Assembly (NCBI GenBank): GCA_963751345.1
Contig: CAVVUS010000010.1
Span: forward strand, 192,001-256,000
Direction of reading: 5' to 3'
Source of the DNA: an uncultured Chloroflexia bacterium
Lineage (GTDB): Bacteria > Chloroflexota > Anaerolineae > B4-G1 > SLSP01
DNA length: 64,000 nucleotides
In this document: in pieces, positions 27,451 through 43,911 of the stretch
Numbering within the stretch: the first letter of the stretch is position 1
Layout: the number at the start of each line of letters is the position of its first letter
Made by a program: the position numbers and the translations under genes
The notes under the pieces: generated by a model
The model's database searches: none
Told to the model about the DNA's origin: nothing
What the model saw: the letters and a program-made list of their open reading frames with translations, nothing else

Positions 27451-27539
27451 AAGCCACGGGCGCACGCAGGTGCTCGTGGCTTTTTTCGTGCTTCAGTCTA
27501 GCGAAAGCCACGGACCGGCGTAAGAGCCCGTGGCTTTTT
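27451..27539 (+). terminator. Two tandem intrinsic terminators (attenuator) upstream of aspS
   Basis: AAGCCACGGGCGC...GTGCTCGTGGCTTTTTT (27451-27486) and AAAGCCACGG...CCGTGGCTTTTT (27504-27539). Confidence 0.85.
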
Positions 27540-27571
27540 GCATAACTCGGGCACAAGAGGGGGGATGTCGA

Positions 27572-29348
27572 ATGGAGAAACGGACGCATCGATGCGGGGC
27601 CTTGCGGTCGGAGCACATCGGTCAGCACGTCACGCTGATGGGGTGGGTGCGCACGCGACGTGATCATGGTTGGCTGATCTTCCTCGATCTATGGGATCGC
27701 GAGGGCGTGACCCAGATTGTCGCCGATCCCAACGATTCCGCCGATGCCCACGCGGTGGCTGGGGACCTCAGGGATGAGTATGTCATCGCCGTAAGCGGCG
27801 TGGTGCGCGCGCGACCACAGGGCACGGAGAACCCCAGCCTGGCCACCGGAGAGATCGAGGTGGTCGCCAACGCTATCGAGATCCTGAACGCCACGACGCC
27901 GCTCCCCTTTCCCGTCGAAGATGCGCCGAAGGTGGATGAGGTGGTACGTTACCGTTACCGCTACCTGGACCTTCGGCGTGAGGCGATGCAGCGGAACTTT
28001 CGGCTCCGCCATCGCGTGGTCAAGACGCTGCGTGATTTCCTGGACACAGAGGGCTTCCTGGAGGTTGAGACGCCGGTCTTGACCCGGAGCACGCCCGAGG
28101 GTGCCCGAGACTACCTGGTGCCCAGCAGGATTCATCCCGGTGAGTTCTACGCGTTGCCGCAGTCGCCCCAGCAGATGAAACAGTTGCTGATGGTCGCCGG
28201 CGTGGACCGCTACTATCAGGTGGCGCGCTGCTTTCGCGATGAGGACCTCCGGGCCGACCGCCAGCCCGAGTTCACGCAGTTGGACCTGGAGATGAGCTTT
28301 GTCGAGCAGGAGGACGTCCTTTCCATGGTCGAGGCGATGGTCCGTGAGATCGTCGCGACGGCGGCGCCCGACCGTCCTCTGGCGACGACGCCCTTCCTCC
28401 GGCTGACCTACGACGAGGCGATGGCGCGGTACGGGACGGACAAGCCCGATCTGCGTTTCGGCATGGCCTTCGTCGACTGCTCGGCGATTCTGTCAGAGAG
28501 TGAGGTGCGGATCTTCCGGGACGTCACCGCGGGGGGCGGGGCCGTCAAGGGATTCCGCGCTTCGGGGTACGGCGCGACCTCTGCGACGGAGCTGGAGACG
28601 CTGCAGACGTTGAGCAAGGAGTTGGGCGCCCAGGGCGTGATCTGGTTCCGCGTTCGGGACGGCGGGTTGGACGCTCCTGTTGCGCGCCATCTCAGCGCCG
28701 AGGAGCAGCGGGCGCTGATCGAGGCCTTCGACGCCGGGGATGGGGACCTGCTGCTGCTGGTGGCAGGTGCCCTCGACGTCGTCAACGGCGCGCTCGACGG
28801 GCTGCGTCGGGAAATGGGTCTACGTCTGGGTCTGATCGATTCGGGAGCCCTGGCCTTCGCCTGGGTGGTTGACTTTCCCGCTCTTCAAATGGGACGCAGA
28901 CAATCACCGTTGGGATTCGGAGCACCATCCGTTTACCAGCCCGCGACCGGAGGATCTTGCGACACTTGAGTCGGATCCGGGTGGGGCACGCGCCAGTTGC
29001 TACGATCTGGTCTGTAACGGTTGGGAACTCGGGTCGGGCTCGATCAGGATCCATCAGCGGGCGCTTCAGGAACGCGTGCTCAAGTTGTTGGCTTACACGC
29101 CCGAGGAGGCAGAGGCCAGCTTTGGTCACTTGATGGAGGCCTTCGAGTATGGCGCGCCGCCGCACGGTGGGTTCGCTGTGGGCATCGATCGCCTCGTCGC
29201 GATATTGGCCGGGACTGACACGATCCGGGATGTGATTGCCTTCCCGAAAACGCGTCAAGCCACCGACCTGACGATGCGCGCGCCGGCGCCCGTCACGGCT
29301 GCCCAACTGGAGGAAATCCACATCCGGATTGCAGGACGCCGCCGTTAG
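27572..29348 (+). CDS. aspS: Aspartate-tRNA ligase, probably non-discriminating; +1 frameshift at about 28875-28880
   Basis: [46 protein letters not shown]; continues in ORF 28869-29348 (HHPFT, GAPPHGG, GIDRL, VIAFPK). Confidence 0.95.
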
Positions 29349-29423
29349 GGGACAGCCCAAAGATCAAGTTAGCTGAGCACCAACGTGGCGGGAGGAAGGG
29401 CATTTAGGGACGAGGAGGTAGAG

Positions 29424-29747
29424 ATGACAACCCCTGACGAAGGGCACGTGATCGATCAAGCGTTGGTCGAGCACGTCGCTTTCCTGATTCGACTGGCGTT
29501 GACGGATGACGAAGTGGAGACCTTTACCGAGCAGTTGAGCACGATCGTGGGGTACTTCGATCGGCTGGCCGAGGTCGATGTGACCGACGTGCCACCGTAT
29601 CGCCAAGCTCAGATGGGACGTGCACGCCTCCGTGACGACGAGGTGAGGCCTTCGATGGCCCGCGAGGACTTCCTGGCAAATGCGCCACAACAACAGGATG
29701 GGTTTGTGCGTGTTCCCGTCGTCCTGGATGTTCCTGACGAAGGCTGA
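29424..29747 (+). CDS. gatC: Asp/Glu-tRNA amidotransferase subunit C
   Basis: VEHVAFLIRLAL, LAEVDVTDVPP, LRDDEV, LANAP...FVRVPVV; RBS GAGGAGG. Confidence 0.92.
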   Translation: MTTPDEGHVIDQALVEHVAFLIRLALTDDEVETFTEQLSTIVGYFDRLAEVDVTDVPPYRQAQMGRARLRDDEVRPSMAREDFLANAPQQQDGFVRVPVVLDVPDEG

Positions 29748-29756
29748 GGAGGCGCC

Positions 29757-31236
<1,480 letters not shown>

Positions 31237-31240
31237 CGCC

Positions 31241-32704
31241 ATGGCGAACGACACATACGAAGTAGTCATAGGGATGGAAATCCACGCCGAGCTGCGGACG
31301 GCCTCAAAGATGTTCTGCGGCTGCCCTGTGGTCGATACGACCGTAGCCGAGCCGAATACCGCCGTCTGCCCCGTTTGCACGGGGCTGCCGGGTGCGATGC
31401 CGGTTGTCAACAAGCGTGCCGTTGAGCAGGCGATGATGGTGGGGCTGGCGCTCAACTGCCGGATCAATGAGTTCACCAGCTTCGCCCGCAAGAACTACTT
31501 CTACCCCGACCTGCCCAAGGGATACCAGATCTCACAGTACGATCATCCCATCGCGACCGACGGCTGGCTCGAGATTCGGACCGATGACGGCGAAACGGTG
31601 CGGGTTGGGATCACGCGCGCGCATCATGGAGGAGGACACGGCCAAGAGCTTCCACCACGGAGCCGGTGGGTACACGCTGATCGACTTCAACCGGTCGAGT
31701 GTGCCGCTGCTCGAGATCGTCTCAGAGCCCGACATGCATTCGGTTGCTGCGGCTCACACCTATGCGACGAAGATCCGCGAGATCCTTCGCTACCTCGGCG
31801 TCAACACGGGTGACATGGAGAAGGGGGTGCTGCGCTTCGAAGCCAACGTCTCCGTGCGCCCACGTCGGCAGCGAGATCCTCGGCACCCGGACGGAGATCA
31901 AGAATCTGAACAGCTTCCGGGCACTGGTGCGGGCATGCGAGTACGAGATCGACCGCCAGATTGACGTCGTCGAATCCGGCGGCATCGTGGCGCAGGAGAC
32001 GCTGGGATGGGACGAGGCGCGCGGCGTAACCTATTCCCAGCGCAGCAAAGAACACGCCCACGACTATCGATACTTCCCGGAGCCGGATCTGCCTCCGCTC
32101 TACATCGATCGCGCCTGGGTTGAGGAAGTGGCGGCGACACTGCCCGAGCTGCCCGATGCAAAGTACGCTCGACTGGTCAAAGCCTATGGTCTCCCGGAGA
32201 ACGACGCCCGCATCCTAGTCGGCGACCAGACGCTCGCCGACTACTTTGAGGCAGCCGCCGGAATCTACGATGGAGAGGCCGCGTCGGTGAGCAAGTGGAT
32301 CGTGGGCGAATTGGCAGCGCTGATGAACCGGCAGGGAGTGGCCGTCGACGACATCCGCGTGACGCCGGAGGCGCTCTCGTCGCTGGTCGCGCTCGTCGAC
32401 AAGGGCACGATCAGCCAGAACAGCGCGAAGGACGTCTTGGGTGCCATGTTCGAGACCGGCAAAGCCGCCCAACGTCATCGTACAGGAGAAGGGACTTGTT
32501 CAGATCTCCGACCAGGATGCACTCTCGCAGGTCGTCGATCAGGTGCTGAGCGAGCACCCAGGTGAGGCGGCAGCATACCTCGAGGGCAAAGAAAGCCTGC
32601 TACAGTGGTTCATGGGCCAGGTGATGCGTGCGACGCGTGGCCGTGCCCAGCCGCAGACGGTCCTCGGACTGCTGCGCGAGAAACTCGAAGCCCGTCGGTC
32701 CTGA
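31241..32704 (+). CDS. gatB: Asp/Glu-tRNA amidotransferase subunit B; frameshifts at about 31620, 31860 and 32470
   Basis: [52 protein letters not shown] and [13 protein letters not shown], spread over four ORFs. Confidence 0.93.
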
Positions 32705-32807: not shown

Positions 32808-33533
32808 TTACTCGGCCTTCGCCTTCTTCTTCCGCAGCACCAAGATGACCACGATCGCGACGACCACACCCATGATCGCACCGGGCAGCCACGCAGGCGG
32901 CTCAGGTAGCGGCTCAGGCAACTGCTCCGGCGGCACCTTCGCCGCCGACCAGTCGACCTTGCCGGAGCGCGTGCCGGTGGTGTCCACATCGCTGAAGTCA
33001 GCGCCTGTGACATCCACTCTCTTTAGCGTGGCGCTTGTCAGATCGGCACCGGTGAAGTCCGCGTTCTTGAAGTTGCTGCCGGCGACCTTGGCCGCCGTGA
33101 AATTGGCGCCGCGCGCGACGGCGCCCTCCAGGTTGGTGCCCATCAATGCGGCGTCCGTCAAGTCCGCATCCGTGAGGTCGACCTTCTCCAGATTGACCCC
33201 CGCGATCTTGGCTGCCGTCATTCGCGCCTTGCGGAGCAATGCTCTGGCCAAGTTGACGCCCATGAACTTCGCGTTCGTCAGGTCAGCGCCCGTGAGGTCG
33301 GTCTGATTCATATCGGCGCCCGCGAACAGGCCGCCCGCCACGTTGGCCCCGGCCAGACTGGCGCGCTGCATCTTGAGACCTGCGAACTTCATCCCCGTGA
33401 GATCCACACCGCTCATGTCGGCGCCGCTGAGGTCGCGCTGGGCAGCCATTTTCTGGGCGATCTCCGCCCTGGTAGCCAACCGCGCCGGAACCTCTGCAAC
33501 CACCGCATCTTCCTGTTTACTCTCTTCGTTCAT
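32808..33533 (-). CDS. Pentapeptide-repeat protein with C-terminal membrane anchor
   Basis: Long run of A(D/N)LxG-type repeats, then a Pro/Glu linker, a TM helix and a basic tail RKKKAK; RBS AAGGAG. Confidence 0.9.
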   Translation of the reverse strand: MNEESKQEDAVVAEVPARLATRAEIAQKMAAQRDLSGADMSGVDLTGMKFAGLKMQRASLAGANVAGGLFAGADMNQTDLTGADLTNAKFMGVNLARALLRKARMTAAKIAGVNLEKVDLTDADLTDAALMGTNLEGAVARGANFTAAKVAGSNFKNADFTGADLTSATLKRVDVTGADFSDVDTTGTRSGKVDWSAAKVPPEQLPEPLPEPPAWLPGAIMGVVVAIVVILVLRKKKAKAE

Positions 33534-33633: not shown

Positions 33634-36156
33634 CTACCGCGTGCCGACTCGACTTTCCAGCCTATCCAGCATCTGTAACATAGCGCTGCGCCGGCGACCG
33701 TCGTGGGGATCGACCGCAGCCAGTGCCTCGTGCAGCGGCTGGACTGCTGTTGCGCCAAAGTGCTCCAGTGTCTCTGCCGCTAGCTTCCGGACCTTGCGAT
33801 CGGGGTCCGCCAGGGCATCGATCAGCGCGGGGATGGCGACGGGATCTCTCGCCACGGCGAGTCCACGGACCGCGCCCCGCCGCATCATGGCAGCATCGCG
33901 TGACAGTGTCTCGATCAGGGCGCGGACTGCGACTTCACCGCCGATGGCGCCCAGCTCCTGGGCAAGCCATGTGCCGCGCCAGTCCGTCGCATCCCTTACT
34001 TGCTCGACCAGATAGGGAACACAGCGTGGGTCGCGAAGCTCACGCAGGAATTCCACGGCGTCGTCGCGGTTATCATCGTCTTGCAGCTGCTCGACGAGGA
34101 TTTCCGCGCCACGAGGATCGCCCTGTCGCGCGATGAAGTAGGCGGCCGCGGGGATGCGTTCGGTGATGGCCATCTGCTGGAGCGCCCCGGTTCCTTCACG
34201 CCCAGTCCCTCGATGATCCCGGACGCTTCGATCGCGTGCTCCGGGCTGGCGTCCCTTAAGTATGTGGTCAGGGTTTTCAGGTCCGCGGGCGTGGCCAACT
34301 TGGCCATCGCCCGGACCGCGGTGCGGCGTACTGCCTCCTCGCTGTCCCAGAGGGCCCCTGCGATGGTTGGCTTAACATGCGCCGCCACGTCCGGCCTTGA
34401 CATCGCGATTCGGCTCAGGCACAGGATGGCGTAACGGCGAATGCGCGCCTGGTCGCTGTCCGCTGCATCGAGAAGGGGAGCTACGGCGGGCTCGCCGATC
34501 CGCACCAGTCCCGTCATAGCTTGCTGCCTGACCTTTGTGTAGTCGTCGTTCAGCGTACGGATCAGCATATCCGTGGCGCGCGGATCGGCGAGGGATGCGA
34601 GGGCGGACACAATCGCGCGCCGGAATCGCCGCTCCGGGCTGTTGGCCGCGATCAACAGGAGGTCCGTGATGCCGGGCCCCAGCGCCGTGAGTTTTTGGGC
34701 TTCGCGAGCTATCTCCACCCTGTTCCACCCGCCGAGGGTGCTCATAACCTCCAGGGCTTTGATTCCCCTCCGGAGCCTGGCTCGCTCCTGGGGCGGCAGA
34801 TCCTGATTCGCCTTAAGCGGTTCGACGAGTCGCAGCGCCGCGACCCAGTCATTGCTCACCGCACCGGTCGAACACGCCACGACGAGACGTGCTTCGTGGG
34901 CACTTTCGGCGTTGGCGATCAGAGTGTCAAACACTGCCTGTCTCAACGATGGGCTCTGCGCCAGCAGATAAGTGGCGCCGGAGCCGATAGACGCGTGGCT
35001 GCTCAGATTCTCGATGGCCGAGGCCACCATGGGCAGAATCGCTGCCTCGAACCGGAGCAGGGCATCGATAGCGGAAGCCCGAGTGTACTCCTCGTGTTGT
35101 GCGAGCAGGCTGTCGAACACCTCGGGTGAGATGCCTGTGCCGTGGAACACGTAGGCTTCTGCCGAGAGCCACGTCGCGTCCGGGTCGTCCTGTGAGAGCC
35201 CCTCAAGAAGGTCACGCGTCGTCATCGGGACGTCGCTTGCCAGCTGTGCCCACGCGTGGCCGATCGTGCCACTGCCGTTGAGGCGCGTCCAGCCGGTCCC
35301 GATAGCGATCCAGGATGTCCCGCGGGTTCTCGATCGTAAGGTATCAGTCTGTCGGGCACGGGCTTTGGCGACGGTTGCTCTGATGTCTCCGATGTGAGAT
35401 CGTGGATGAGCTCGGCTAGGCGTTCTTGATCCTCCTCGTCCGGTTCGAGATCCCAAGAGGTTCGGGCACGTCGACCAGATGGAGGTTGGCCTGCCAGGGG
35501 CGGAAGGCCGAAAGCTCGCCTCGTTCGATGGGGAGGCAGGCGAGGCCGGAATCCTCGTTGAGGCTGTAGGGCATCCGCGTGATCCTGGGCAAATGGTGCG
35601 CCTGGCTGTTGCTCCAGCCGAGCAGCGCCCCCGCGAGTTTCCGCGTCGATTTCCCACGGTATCCCGAGGGGACGATCTCACCCGGAATGACGATGTGCAG
35701 GCTGCGATGTCCGCTGAACTTGTGCTGGTAGGGAACGCCATACCGCTCGAAGAGTGAGATGACGGCACTCACGTCCTGGAACGAGTCGCGCCAGGTGGGC
35801 AGATCGGCCTCGAAGACGCAGTCCATGTGCTGGTCTCGGGCGTGCGGGCCCTCACCGCCGGGACCCTTCCGGACCGACTGGTGGAACGCCGGGTAGAACT
35901 CCGGTCGTTTGTCCGCTCCGACCTCGGGCAAGTGTGCTTCGATCTTGCGCTCGATGAACTGTCGTAAGGCCGCGACGTCATCGCCTACGACCTCGTCCTT
36001 CTCCCAGTTCGGTTCCCAGTGCTTTCTCTCGGAGATGATGAGCACCACGCGCCGCCTCCGCACGGTGTCCAGGAGATAGCGCAGGAACGAGTCCTGGGTG
36101 TAATACTCGATGACTTCGCCAAGGGTGGGTCTTCGGCCGAGTGTGATTGTGTTCAT
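33634..36156 (-). CDS. Putative AEP (primase-like) domain fused to HEAT/PBS-lyase repeats; several apparent frameshifts
   Basis: N-terminal ORF has DCVFEAD, KFSGHRSLHIVIP and RMPYSLNEDSGLACLPI; downstream ORFs 33996-35768 and 33634-34173 are HEAT repeats; coding looks continuous across frame changes at about 35450, 35340, 35290 and 34190. Confidence 0.65.
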
Positions 36157-36376
36157 AGGATCCTTTGGGGTTTTCTCGTCGAGTAGGCACCCGCTTGTGA
36201 AGGCCCGAGGCTGCTCGGGCTTGACCCGAAAGGTCTTCGCCGACCGTCGCAGGTTTCCCGAGGACGCCGCCTGATCTTGCACCAGGCATGGTCAAGCGAC
36301 GCCACCTCGGTGGAGATGCCGAAACGTTGACAGGTGCCTGAGGCTGGAAAGGCATACTCCCGCAGCCTGATGCCCT

Positions 36377-41270: not shown

Positions 41271-41353
41271 CGGACCGTTCACCTTTCCCAATGTCCAGCC
41301 ACCCGGCCGGCTAAGTTGGCATCATTTCCTTGAAGGAGACAGGGCATCCCGTC

Positions 41354-43911
41354 ATGGCGACACCATTTCTCGAATACGAACTTCAGGATGGCTTTGTTAA
41401 CAATTGGCTTGTAGTCGGTCCCGTGGAAACCGCTATCGCCCCCGCGTCCGATGGCGGCCTGAGTGAGTCCGAACGCAAGTTGCACATTGTACAGGAATAT
41501 CAACGCGAGCGTGGGTTGGCAGGGTCAGGCACGGGATTGGTCGGCGAGCCCGTCGACCGGGGTGCTGTGACCGTCGATGGGGAGGGGTTCCGGTGGTCCT
41601 ATGTACGGTGTCTGGATGACCACTTCGTCGATCTATCGACCTTCCGTCACAATTGGACGTATCTTCGGGCTTGGGCCTACACACGGTTGAGCCTGTTTGA
41701 CCCGGCGGAAGTCACCTTTGTACTCACTACCAACGGGCCGGCGGATGTGTGGATCAATGGGCAGCCCGTCCATCGCCACGAGCACTTCCACCATCAGGAC
41801 CCGAAGAGCGTCTCGTTTCAGGCCTCGCTGCAAGCCGGTGATAACGAGATCCTCGTGCGGTTCGAGGAGGTGGCGGCTCGTGAGTGCCCCTACGTGATGG
41901 CCTTGGCGCTGGAAGGTGACTTTGAAGCTGAGGATGTCGAGGTTAAGATTCCCTCGGCAACCGGAGCGCACCGTACGTCATCAGATGTTCGAGCAAGTCT
42001 TCGAGCAATCCTCTATCGAGGATGTGGCTAACTACCGTGGCAAGGTGCTCAACCTGCACTGGTCCGACGATCTGGAAGCCAACTTCAGATACCAATACAG
42101 CATCCAGGGACCCGGCGACCGCATCAATGTGGACGGCAAAGTGGAGGCGGCACCGGGTGTGGTGGTCGACATTGGCCACGGCTTCCGAATCTGGCAGGGA
42201 CCGTATCGTGCGGTCGTTCGCCCGATTCCCAAGGAGTACTACGAATACGATATCCGCTACCAATGGGATATGCCGGTTTACATCCTGGACAACGAGTATT
42301 CCGAGACGCCCTATGGCACCCTGGAAGAGCGCAGCCAGGAGGCACTGGAATACGCGGTAACCCAGAAGGACGACCTCTACGCCGAGATTGCCAAGTTCAA
42401 GCTGGGCAAATGGGCGGATGTTGACCAGGACGTGATCCTCAGTGCCATCGAGTCGATCAACCACCGTGAGGATTGCAGCGATTTCTATCTGGTCGGTTTG
42501 TTGGGCGCAATCGCCCGCTTTGGCGGCGAGGACGGATTCCCCGATGCGCTCAGATCAGCAGTCAAGGAGTGCGCGTTAGGCTTCAAGTACTGGCTGGATG
42601 AGCCTGGTGTGGATGCGATGGCTTACGCCACGGAGAATCACTCCATTCTCTTTCACACCTGCGAAATCCTGGCCGGCCAGCTCTATCCTGACGACGTCTT
42701 CACCAATGTGGGGGAGGCGGGCGGGTGGCACCGTGAGAAGGGCGAGAAGTTGGCCACGGCATGGCTTGAGCAGCGTGCCAAGGCCGGTTTCTGGGAATGG
42801 GACTCCAACTGCTACTTTCGATGAGGATGTGTTGGCGCTCTCACACCTGGCCGGGCTTGCCGAGGCCGAGGATGTCGGCGAGTTGGCCGCGGTCGTGATG
42901 GACAAGCTCCTCTTCACACTCGCTCTGAGTTCGTATAAGGGCGTCTTCGGCTCGACCCATGGGCGGACCTATGCCCAGATGATCAAGACCGGAAAGTTGG
43001 AGCCCACGTCGGGCATCGGTCGGCTTCTCTGGGGCACCGGAGTCTACAACCAACACCTGCGCGGGCTGGTGGGTTTGGTGTGCTCGGAATACACTTTCCC
43101 TCTGATGATCGGCCTCATTGCGAACGATGCTTCCGCCGAAATGTGGGATCGCGAGCGGCACGTCATCAGTGATGCCGGCGACGAGGTGAATAAGGTCACC
43201 TACAGGACGCCCGACTACATGCTCGCGTCGGCACAGGATTTCCGCCCGGGTGAGAAGGGTTACCAGCAGCATATTTGGCAGGCCACCCTTGGTCCCGACG
43301 CGGTGGTCTTCGTCAACCATCCCCCCTGTGTGAGCGAAGACGGCGCGCACCGGCCAAACTTTTGGTCGGGCAACTACGTTTTGCCGCGGGTTGCCCAGTG
43401 GAAAGATACCTTGATCGCGCTACACGACCTGCCCGAGGACGATTGGTTGGGCTTCACTCATGCTCACTTTCCCGTGTATGCCTTTGACGAGTACGTGATC
43501 CGTGGCGACTGGGCATTCGCGCGCAAGGGCGACGGATACGTAGCATTAGGGGCTTCGCAAGGGCTATCCTTGATCAAGCGCGGTCCCGCAGCCTATCGAG
43601 AGCTCCGCTCTCCAGGACGCCAGAATGCCTGGGTCTGCCAGATGGGACGTGCCGCGGTGGACGGTGACTTCGACGCATTTCAGGACAGAGTGCTGGGCCT
43701 CACGTTTGACGTCGAGGGTTTGAACGTGCAGTTCGAGACGCTCCGAGGTGAGATGCTGTCGTTCGGATGGCGGGGCCCGCTATTGCGCGATGGGCAGGAA
43801 GAGCCCATCGCCGGGTTCAAACACTACGAGAACCCATTCTGCACAGCCGAGCTGGGCGCCGAGACAATGGATATCCAACTGGGTGGATATGTGATGCGTT
43901 TGCAGTTCTGA
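41354..43911 (+). CDS. Large cytoplasmic hypothetical protein, possibly carbohydrate-active; frameshifts at about 41965 and 42818
   Basis: NWLVVGP...GPADVWING beta-sandwich-like N-terminus; REDCSDF, KYWLDEPG, TENHSILFH, EWDSNCY, STHGRTY, GYQQHIWQAT and RPNFWSGN, across three ORFs. Confidence 0.7.

Follow-up and report, generated by a model that had tools for sequence, protein, structure and literature searches.

Does the minus strand between positions 33634 and 36156 of the window (the whole stretch of 64,000 nucleotides analysed here) encode a single protein in which an AEP (primase-polymerase) catalytic domain is joined to a long array of HEAT repeats, and what would such a protein do in its bacterial host? 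Three settings are known for AEPs in bacteria: NHEJ and gap repair, mobile-element replication, and a small number of defence systems. The context of the gene described here, termed AEP-HEAT, fits none of these three.

Gene structure and frame breaks

As assembled, the AEP-HEAT gene runs through three frames of the minus strand, from an ATG at 36156 to a stop codon at 33634-33636, and is split into two ORFs of 288 and 179 aa and one of 590 aa that is partly spurious. The three peptides quoted by the first-pass annotation of this DNA lie in one minus-strand frame, and the interval that it proposed proves to be that of the gene itself. By tblastn, the assembled gene is collinear with the intact 837-aa orthologue of a related genome (G002) over residues 1-837. 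The AEP domain of about 233-235 residues (35458..36156), supported by the AF2 model, VIA and the profile search against the PDB, is followed by a linker (35286..35464) that is poorly conserved in the nucleotide alignment with G002 and contains three of the four single-nucleotide indels described below, as well as an in-frame insertion of 9 nt near 35384 relative to the G002 orthologue. The first alpha-solenoid/HEAT part (34197..35285; 363 codons), which is out of the start frame as assembled, is stop-free and 66% identical to residues 288-650 of the G002 protein, and the last HEAT part (33637..34194; 186 codons), where the start frame is regained, is 85% identical to residues 652-837. HEAT_2 (PF13646) is matched in the first part with E = 1.1e-18 and in the last with E = 8.3e-18, with scores of 67.7 and 64.9 bits that exceed the Pfam gathering threshold of 27.7; HEAT_PBS (PF03130) is matched in the last part with E = 1.1e-15 (56.8 bits, gathering threshold 20.9), and HEAT is also scored in the C-terminal 590 or so residues. 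The division read from the letters by the first-pass annotation, an AEP-like N-terminus ahead of a HEAT array, is upheld: about 235 N-terminal residues carry the quoted motifs, and the C-terminal 590 or so are HEAT repeats. The locus is a single gene whose product, about 840 residues long, carries the AEP domain and a long HEAT solenoid in one chain.

The several frame changes across which coding had seemed to continue were located by nucleotide alignment with G002 as four single-base indels: a loss of 1 nt near 35464, a gain of 1 nt near 35342, another gain near 35286, and a loss of 1 nt near 34195. Each may be off by a few bases, since three fall within the poorly conserved linker. The shifts cancel, so that the start and the end of the gene are in the same frame. 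All four breaks are most likely assembly errors, because the neighbouring genes are broken in the same way (within the same 18 kb, gatB has three shifts relative to G002, and gatA and aspS have one each; the gene for an 859-aa protein has two), because the orthologues are intact, and because dN/dS is 0.14 in the AEP domain, 0.32 in the linker, and 0.18 and 0.30 in the two HEAT parts. The corrected frames of every segment are stop-free, and the gene is under purifying selection. Uninterrupted orthologues of 837-851 residues are found in relatives, with open frames of 850, 851 and 838 aa in G002, G015 and G027, and HEAT_2 is found in 44 of the 63 family rows scanned, as expected if the fusion inferred by the first-pass annotation is genuine. 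Metagenome contigs cover the gene in parts; a single one spans the first indel, and none is informative for the other three. This near-identical contig of 151 nt (depth 2.4, seven mismatches) has one extra base behind 35460, which favours a single gene weakly. A search of sequencing runs returned only two metagenome runs, in which fractions of 0.08 and 0.07 of the words occurred; the source reads were not found, and no RNA run was listed. For annotation, the locus is to be called one gene with assembly frameshifts and not three ORFs or a pseudogene.

The AEP domain, its active site and the solenoid

On the evidence of profiles and models, the N-terminal domain is a genuine AEP with a fold closest to those of LigD-Pol, Prim-PolC and PriS. 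When the family profile was compared to the PDB, LigD-Pol was the best match (E = 7.5e-8) and eukaryotic PriS was also matched (E = 5e-7); hhalign against LigD-Pol gave 88% and E = 2.9e-6. The AF2 model of the domain (pLDDT 91, pTM 0.88) had 17 Foldseek matches at E <= 1e-3, the best at 9.3e-6, and all of the matches listed were AEPs. Over model residues 4-242, the VIA Z score was 14.3 with LigD-Pol (2fao), 13.8 with Prim-PolC (6sa0), 13.2 with Sso PriS, 12.5 with Pfu PriS and 11-12.6 with human Pri1, and about 205-210 residues were aligned structurally with LigD-Pol/Prim-PolC; the Z score was 9.7 for a CAPP-type Prim-Pol versus approximately 14 for LigD-Pol. The AEP fold that the first-pass annotation had surmised is thus recovered by profile and by structure. 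Library models of these families do not reach the domain: the AEP domain of the window matches no Pfam family at E <= 1 and no entry of PHROGs, none of the 63 family rows matches PF21686 at 1e-5, and the NCBIfam PriS equivalog, whose cut-off is 577 bits, scores only 11.8. For short relatives, the scores with PF21686, with PF01896 and with a phage primase PHROG range from below threshold to marginal (13-31 bits for PF21686, with 1 of 16 above the cut-off of 27.4). Look-alikes in the ESM Atlas, which serve as leads only, are hypothetical proteins of small size from phages and Nitrososphaerota, and PF21686 or PF01896 is found in some of them.

Conservation was counted over 63 family rows, or over 32 full-length members for the distal columns, and residues are numbered in the 248-aa piece. 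Motif I, DCVFEAD (D114, E118 and D120; 35803..35823), aligns with VLDLD or IVFDLD of LigD-Pol; D120 is present in 63/63 rows and D114 in 57/63, and the ExD that the first-pass annotation had read in place of DxD is typical of the family, the middle residue being E in 61 of the 63 rows and D in two. Motif II, KFSGHRSLHIVIP (S150, G151 and H156; 35683..35721), aligns with KTSGGKGMHLLVP of LigD-Pol, KFSGHRSLH being opposite KTSGGKGMH, with G151 in 63/63 rows and H156 in 62/63. The distal motif, RMPYSLNEDSGLACLPI (R196, Y199 and S200; 35527..35577), which was assigned from alignments to PriS and LigD-Pol, is matched in the family profile by LLKSPFSVHPKTGRISVPI of eukaryotic PriS and AAYSV of LigD-Pol; R196, S200, N202 and E203 are each found in 32/32 members and Y199 in 28/32 (F in the other four). 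The residues D, E, D, S, G, R, S, H, R, S, N and E are kept in 32/32 full-length members, and the strictly conserved patterns, those of nucleotide and metal binding, are D-x3-E-x-D, K-x-S-G-x-R-S-x-H and R-x-x-Y-S-x-N-E. No Asp aligns at motif III, where hhalign places the "IFID" strand of LigD in a gap. Judging from the alignments and from DSSP of the AF2 model, which has a short strand at residues 189-190, a conserved His (H189; 35596..35598) appears to stand in the place of the motif III Asp, the third metal ligand; this column is H in 26, D in three, E in one and R in two of the 32 full-length members. If His cannot replace this Asp, the AEP domain may be inactive or of different chemistry.

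The full-length model of the G002 protein (pLDDT 91.6, pTM 0.78) is all-alpha from residue 243, and the best PDB matches of its solenoid are alphaRep (designed alphaRep proteins being among the top), PP2A-A and karyopherin.

The nearest known proteins are the LigD polymerase domain and Prim-PolC (PF21686), AEPs that act in bacterial NHEJ and gap repair. AEP-HEAT resembles them in that motifs I and II align, as do the distal ..YS.. and an N-terminal ..YY.. element, but differs in having ExD instead of DxD and His at the putative motif III Asp place, in lacking any association with ligase, phosphoesterase or Ku, and in carrying a 590-residue HEAT solenoid. PriS/Pri1 (PF01896) has the same fold, and its LLKSPFSVHPKTGRISVP aligns with R-x-P-Y-S-L-N-E-D-x-G-L of AEP-HEAT, but the host of AEP-HEAT replicates with DnaG, no PriL-like Fe-S partner came to notice, and the NCBIfam PriS cut-off lies far above the score given earlier.

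Genomic context and distribution

By orthology with G002, the 27.5-45.2 kb region of the window contains aspS, gatA, gatB, and genes for a pentapeptide-repeat protein, GH5, DUF362, the 859-aa protein and LacI, and the ORFs of at least 140 aa at 12-27.5 kb and 45.2-60 kb were assigned by NCBIfam to metabolic and transport genes only. The first-pass annotation noted the lack of a nearby helicase, Ku, ligase or mobile-element gene, and this holds for the 12-60 kb of the window that was scanned. Neither ligase nor Ku was found at the loci of five relatives, and a helicase or mobile context is absent from relatives' loci and not recurrent in 58 metagenome loci. Among these 58 loci, the largest clusters of neighbours comprise five loci each (in the first cluster, L055, L056 and L058 are near-identical copies), there are no conserved partner genes, and the context offers no clue to function. 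PADLOC returned generic HEAT-ARM matches only, and no defence-island neighbours occur in the window or the scanned loci, the surroundings being housekeeping and carbohydrate genes. The gatB-pentapeptide locus is retained in genomes without AEP-HEAT, which makes this a case of presence or absence at a fixed chromosomal locus. The pentapeptide-repeat neighbour was considered as a partner and rejected: it occurs in 18/21 genomes of the genus versus 5/21 for AEP-HEAT, and it stays beside gatB where AEP-HEAT is missing.

The host genome (G000, 93% complete) encodes a canonical DnaG (415.8 bits, cut-off 283.6), and neither LigD-Pol (PF21686) nor Ku was found in it. Since DnaG is present, AEP-HEAT is not the replicative primase; the first-pass annotation had leaned to the same view, with which the patchy occurrence of the gene and the lack of a helicase or mobile context agree. 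PrimPol-helicase replicases such as PrimPol-PV1, which serve plasmids, phages and integrated elements, likewise place an AEP core in a bacterial genome, but AEP-HEAT comes without a helicase, a PriCT or Zn-binding domain, an integrase or attachment repeats, and its flanks are conserved and of housekeeping character across the genus.

The AEP-HEAT architecture is rare and unnamed, and its catalytic part is recognised by no Pfam or NCBIfam model. The family numbers 174 of 1.84 billion representatives. The gene is carried by 6/60 relatives, including 5/21 genomes of the genus; a profile search of a 400-genome sample of the phylum gave only three matches, all of them true LigD-Pol, with AEP-HEAT found in none of the 400, and an alignment-based search for related loci gave four genome loci only. 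Amino acid identity to G002 is 66-85% for AEP-HEAT and 88-98% for the neighbouring genes, and identity among the 32 full-length members is as low as 21%. Tandem paralogues are found in two genomes (G027 and G001) and two metagenome loci (L028 and L068). In one distant branch, the family lies in ECF sigma/anti-sigma cassettes, and a fusion to an ECF sigma factor is seen in one member. In the literature searched, neither a fusion of an AEP or LigD/primase to HEAT repeats nor a "TOTE conflict system" with a primase was found, and the passages found in a 2018 survey of PrimPol-helicase families (PMC5862659) do not mention a HEAT fusion.

Predicted function and rival explanations

The explanation preferred here, with a probability of roughly 0.55 for the whole, is that AEP-HEAT is an intact gene for a putative active, dispensable, non-replicative polymerase with a built-in solenoid. 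The AEP domain would be a divalent-metal-dependent nucleotidyltransferase and would synthesise short polynucleotides or lengthen them; the HEAT solenoid would be its accessory module and would hold the template, the product or a partner protein, as PriL, helix-bundle or alphaRep modules do for other polymerases; and the protein would be a dispensable factor that the cell uses under DNA damage or genetic conflict. The roles suggested by the first-pass annotation, those of a signal synthase or of a repair or defence factor, are candidates at this stage.

A more specific reading, possible but on balance rather unlikely, is that of a single-protein anti-phage conflict system, in which, upon a trigger, polynucleotide would be made without a template or from a protein primer and would remain bound to the solenoid. 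Class 1 UG/Abi reverse transcriptases are polymerases fused to a C-terminal HEAT-like alpha-repeat solenoid, and UG10 also contains an AEP domain, according to passages of PMC9226505 and of the DRT7/UG10 preprint. The combination of an AEP palm with an alphaRep/HEAT solenoid would be convergent with this arrangement, and a conflict system would be consistent with patchy distribution, presence or absence at a fixed locus, faster evolution of AEP-HEAT than of its neighbours, and the tandem paralogues in four loci or genomes. Against it, PADLOC offers no family beyond generic HEAT, and no DRT match in particular; defence-island neighbours are lacking in the window and the scanned loci; Pfam scans find no RT family, the protein being all-alpha after residue 243; and the AEP domain belongs to another branch, nearer to LigD-Pol and PriS (Z 13-14) than to the CAPP-type Prim-Pol (Z 9.7), which DRT7 resembles. 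Somewhat less probable is a repair or gap-filling polymerase of the LigD-Pol/Prim-PolC kind that dispenses with Ku and with fusion to a ligase, and is recruited by its solenoid to ends, gaps or a partner. LigD-Pol and Prim-PolC are the closest solved folds, LigD-Pol is the best sequence-profile match, and a repair niche could be open since no LigD-Pol or Ku was detected in the host genome; yet the scanned loci have no ligase, Ku or other repair gene next to AEP-HEAT, wider retention than in 5/21 genomes of the genus would be expected of a repair enzyme, and the PF21686 threshold is not reached.

The absence of the canonical motif III Asp would also suit a pseudo-enzyme, that is, a catalytically dead AEP-like module for binding or regulation on a HEAT scaffold, and the distant branch in ECF sigma/anti-sigma cassettes with its ECF fusion hints at regulation. 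This reading is improbable: the motif I carboxylates, SG..H and R..YS.NE are invariant in 32 members, which is unexpected of a dead site, and four of the six exceptions in the His column are D or E, as they would be for a metal ligand. Hardly credible is a decaying pseudogene, or a set of two to three separate genes whose fusion is only apparent. Four frame changes do split the gene into ORFs as assembled, but the same single-base shifts affect the essential neighbours gatA, gatB and aspS, the shifts in AEP-HEAT cancel to leave a shared start and end frame, the corrected segments are stop-free with dN/dS of 0.14-0.32, and the orthologues are single ORFs.

A further and doubtful proposal is that AEP-HEAT proteins form a class, so far unrecognised, of self-contained "polymerase on a solenoid" effectors. 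The RT of AbiK/DRT-type defence proteins would be replaced in them by an AEP whose metal site is of the carboxylate-carboxylate-histidine type. A cue of stress or infection would start synthesis of an untemplated or protein-primed polynucleotide or of a short signalling oligonucleotide, the HEAT solenoid would retain or present the product, and a sister branch with a small AEP would be wired into ECF sigma/anti-sigma cassettes. If this were true, primase-like enzymes would have a wider non-replicative use in bacterial signalling; a role for AEP-HEAT as a polymerase of defence or signalling would make it a convergent equivalent of the RT-alphaRep proteins. If it is active, AEP-HEAT would represent a new AEP architecture, perhaps with a new variant of the metal site, in an experimentally tractable single-protein system. 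The apparent change of Asp to His at motif III is an observation that was absent from the first-pass annotation.

Frame breaks in the AEP-HEAT gene

The AEP-HEAT gene, in which an N-terminal domain from the superfamily of archaeo-eukaryotic primases (AEPs) precedes a HEAT-repeat solenoid, occupies positions 33634-36156 of the minus strand (ATG at 36156, stop at 33634-33636). When this strand is read in three frames and compared with the ORF list, DCVFEAD, KFSGHRSLHIVIP and RMPYSLNEDSGLACLPI, the peptides quoted in the first-pass annotation, stand letter-perfect within one 248-residue N-terminal piece (35416-36162), after which apparent coding sequence shifts frames, as had been described, and closes with a 179-aa HEAT ORF. 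The HEAT/PBS-lyase repeats reported downstream are recognized by Pfam on both C-terminal pieces as HEAT_2 (1.1e-18 and 8.3e-18), HEAT_PBS and HEAT; the N-terminal piece matches no Pfam family at E<=1, and its sole NCBIfam match is to PriS (11.8 bits, over the RMPYSL region).

The AEP domain is present in six of 60 related genomes (five of the 21 in the same genus), and lies within open frames of 850 aa (G002), 851 aa (G015) and 838 aa (G027). The fusion that the first-pass annotation had proposed exists in these three genomes as single ORFs, the unbroken AEP-linker-HEAT proteins in the ORF listings being 837, 851 (about 836 from a conserved Met) and 838 aa long, respectively. From residue 1 to residue 837 the G002 protein is collinear with the window, where it is read successively in frames -2, -1, -2, -3 and -2, and nucleotide alignment to G002 locates single-base indels near 35464 (-1), 35342 (+1), 35286 (+1) and 34195 (-1), plus an in-frame insertion of 9 nt in the window gene. 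Within the same 18 kb, frameshifts relative to G002 number three in gatB, one each in gatA and aspS and two in an 859-aa gene, with none in GH5, DUF362 or LacI; the frameshifted neighbours (27530-32701 and 41330-43908) are 88-98% identical to their intact G002 orthologues. Because essential genes (gatA, gatB, aspS) cannot carry real frameshifts, the assembly must be error-prone, and from these alignments AEP-HEAT is most likely one gene with breaks that are assembly indels. ORF-based annotation of contig CAVVUS010000010.1, given such frequent single-base indels, would over-call pseudogenes. A low-depth contig of 151 nt from a roughly 95%-identical soil strain has one base more behind 35460, at the first indel, which weakly suggests an assembly error there.

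The corrected frames contain no stops, and dN/dS relative to G002 (0.14 for the AEP domain, 0.32 for the linker, 0.18 and 0.30 for the HEAT parts) shows purifying selection at the level of sequence comparison. In the last 186 codons (33637-34194) dS relative to G002 is 0.30, compared to 0.79-1.34 in the rest of the gene; recombination or gene conversion could account for this low value.

Fold and active site

A phmmer search of 1.84 billion representatives yielded 174 matches at E<=1e-3, with 103 remaining at 1e-10 and 35 at 1e-30; proteins of 800-930 aa are numerous among the matches. In the PDB, a profile built from 21 short members of the family matched LigD-Pol of Pseudomonas aeruginosa (7.5e-8) and the small subunits of eukaryotic primases (5e-7 to 1e-5), and more weakly LigD-Pol of Mycobacterium tuberculosis (3e-3) and PriS of Sulfolobus solfataricus (0.26), with motif I, motif II and the distal motif aligned; a profile of HEAT-clade N-termini was aligned by hhalign to three LigD-Pol domains with 88% probability (E 2.9e-6). 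The AlphaFold2 model of the window's AEP domain, built on a 63-row alignment (pLDDT 91.0, pTM 0.88), has LigD-Pol, NHEJ polymerase, Prim-PolC and PriS as its top PDB matches in Foldseek and phage AEP primases as its matches in BFVD, and VIA-align Z scores over model residues 4-242 are 14.3 (2fao), 13.8 (6sa0), 13.7 (5dmu), 13.2 (1zt2), 12.5 (1g71) and 9.7 (CAPP, 7nqe). Short relatives score marginally to PF21686, PF01896 and phrog_16345 (primase). The assignment of the N-terminal domain to the AEP superfamily is thus borne out by profiles and predicted structure, which show a real AEP fold; its fusion to the HEAT region is real as well.

Conservation was assessed in an alignment of the window piece with 62 of the 150 phmmer matches listed, chosen for near-full coverage of the N-terminal domain. 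In the numbering of the 248-residue piece, D120 and G151 are found in all 63 rows, H156 and S200 in 62, S150 in 61, K148 in 60, Y199 in 58, D114 in 57 and R196 in 56; E118 is found in 61 and replaced by D in two, so the earlier reading of motif I as ExD rather than DxD holds for nearly all of these rows. PrimPol-type enzymes tolerate Asp/Glu exchange in this motif. Across 32 full-length proteins that carry the HEAT fusion, with identities as low as 21%, there is no variation in D, E, D, S, G, R, S, H, R, S, N and E. No canonical motif III Asp was aligned: the 'IFID' strand of LigD is opposite a gap in the HEAT-clade hhalign alignment, as are 'LDS'/'VDD' of distant short members in the MAFFT alignment. 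A conserved Ala-His (H189) is predicted by the AlphaFold2 model on a two-residue strand directly before the R-I-T-R strand, and because His in this column exchanges with Asp or Glu (H26/D3/E1/R2 in the 32 full-length members), as a metal ligand would, we infer that H189 may stand in for the third metal-binding carboxylate. Residue conservation shows a catalytic centre that is maintained though altered.

In the full-length model of the G002 protein (32-row alignment; pLDDT 91.6, pTM 0.78) the AEP core reaches roughly residue 235 and the structure is purely helical at 243-837, with confidence briefly low at 264-269. The model's top PDB matches are designed alphaRep proteins, the A subunit of PP2A, karyopherin-beta2 and SF3B1; on this model the solenoid is a generic HEAT scaffold. 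Pfam detects HEAT_2 in 44 of the 63 rows and an AEP family at 1e-5 in none, and source databases leave family members nameless or 'hypothetical protein', in clusters of 1-5 sequences. The FGE-sulfatase domain occurs in two rows; P0061 (1141 aa) is an AEP-HEAT protein with an insertion in the N-terminal half of its AEP domain and a C-terminal FGE-sulfatase domain.

Genomic setting and possible role

The gene order, shared by G002 around AEP-HEAT, is aspS, gatA and gatB (plus strand), a pentapeptide-repeat gene adjoining gatB (32808-33530, minus strand; membrane-anchored by a C-terminal transmembrane helix), AEP-HEAT (minus strand), genes for a small membrane protein and a beta-helix-like protein, GH5, DUF362, the 859-aa gene and LacI. 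The pentapeptide-repeat gene is a core gene, found in 18 of the 21 genus genomes. Among 19 pentapeptide loci examined, gatB adjoins in 15 and AEP-HEAT was found inside the 1.5-kb flanks in only four; in G006, GH5 directly abuts the pentapeptide-repeat gene. The locus is thus fixed, and AEP-HEAT is polymorphic there, present in some genomes and absent from others. The pentapeptide-repeat gene is ruled out as an obligate partner, being kept next to gatB without AEP-HEAT.

AEP-HEAT is rare, and lacks a replication, NHEJ or mobile-element context. In agreement with the first-pass annotation that no helicase, Ku, ligase or mobile element is nearby, the window ORFs scanned farther out are solely metabolic and transport genes. 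The genome of the window (93% complete) carries DnaG, and neither LigD-Pol nor Ku was found in it. Four genome loci with AEP-HEAT relatives belong to Chloroflexota MAGs; a profile search of a 400-genome sample of the phylum matched three genomes, each of which encodes a true LigD_Prim-Pol. Scanning metagenomes turned up 106 relatives, of which 80 were kept; neighbours were clustered for 58 of these loci, and the remaining 22, whose short contigs offer little flanking sequence, were left out. The two largest neighbour clusters comprise five loci each, three of those in cluster 1 (L055, L056, L058) being near-identical copies of one contig region, and the Pfam names of the clusters (M48 peptidase, ABC transporter, dehydrogenases) are mutually unrelated. 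PADLOC returned generic HEAT matches to AEP-HEAT and nothing more specific.

The AEP domain would be an active, non-replicative nucleotidyltransferase, and the HEAT solenoid a built-in accessory or substrate-holding module. The evidence separating service in DNA repair from service in conflict is thin: the fold neighbours favour repair, and conflict is favoured by the patchy distribution, by the tandem paralogues and by divergence faster than that of neighbouring genes (66-85% versus 88-98% identity to G002). In the portions of PMC9226505 and of the DRT7 preprint covered here, Class 1 UG/Abi defence proteins have an RT-alphaRep design, to which DRT7/UG10 adds an AEP. By analogy of domain layout, this design is the closest architectural analogue in print, so far as those portions describe it; AEP-HEAT differs in having no RT and an AEP of another branch. 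No published AEP-HEAT fusion was found in the portions of the literature searched, which included passages of PMC5862659; AEP-HEAT is rated a new AEP family and architecture, of which an earlier mention in print is possible.

Tandem paralogues and small relatives

At L011:8170-12322 (G027) and L012:5003-9507 (G001), a paralogue of lesser length (543-673 aa, 31-37% identity) lies directly behind the AEP-HEAT gene. D-x3-E-x-D is retained in this paralogue, as is the His of motif II, and Asn takes the place of R196; the tandem pair may be a two-subunit form. A sister branch consists of small AEPs (~260-350 aa) with a classical DxD and a motif III Asp (L099:272-6070, L100:1253-4296, L092:7767-10405, L093:4232-6909, L088:1942-4586). 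L099 and L100 share a cassette of ECF sigma factor, zf-HC2-like anti-sigma factor, DUF4152, AEP and a protein of ~540-620 aa, which in L099 continues with a DUF4097-like protein; the small AEP and the ~540-620-aa protein are all that is seen in L092 and L093. P0128 joins the N-domain of the ~540-620-aa protein to the AEP, and P0089 (510 aa), named in its source as a sigma factor only, is an ECF sigma-70 factor directly fused to an AEP domain. At L090:4581-8840, an AEP-HEAT gene for 670 aa has, 559 nt upstream, a gene for an ECF sigma plus bifunctional-nuclease-domain protein.
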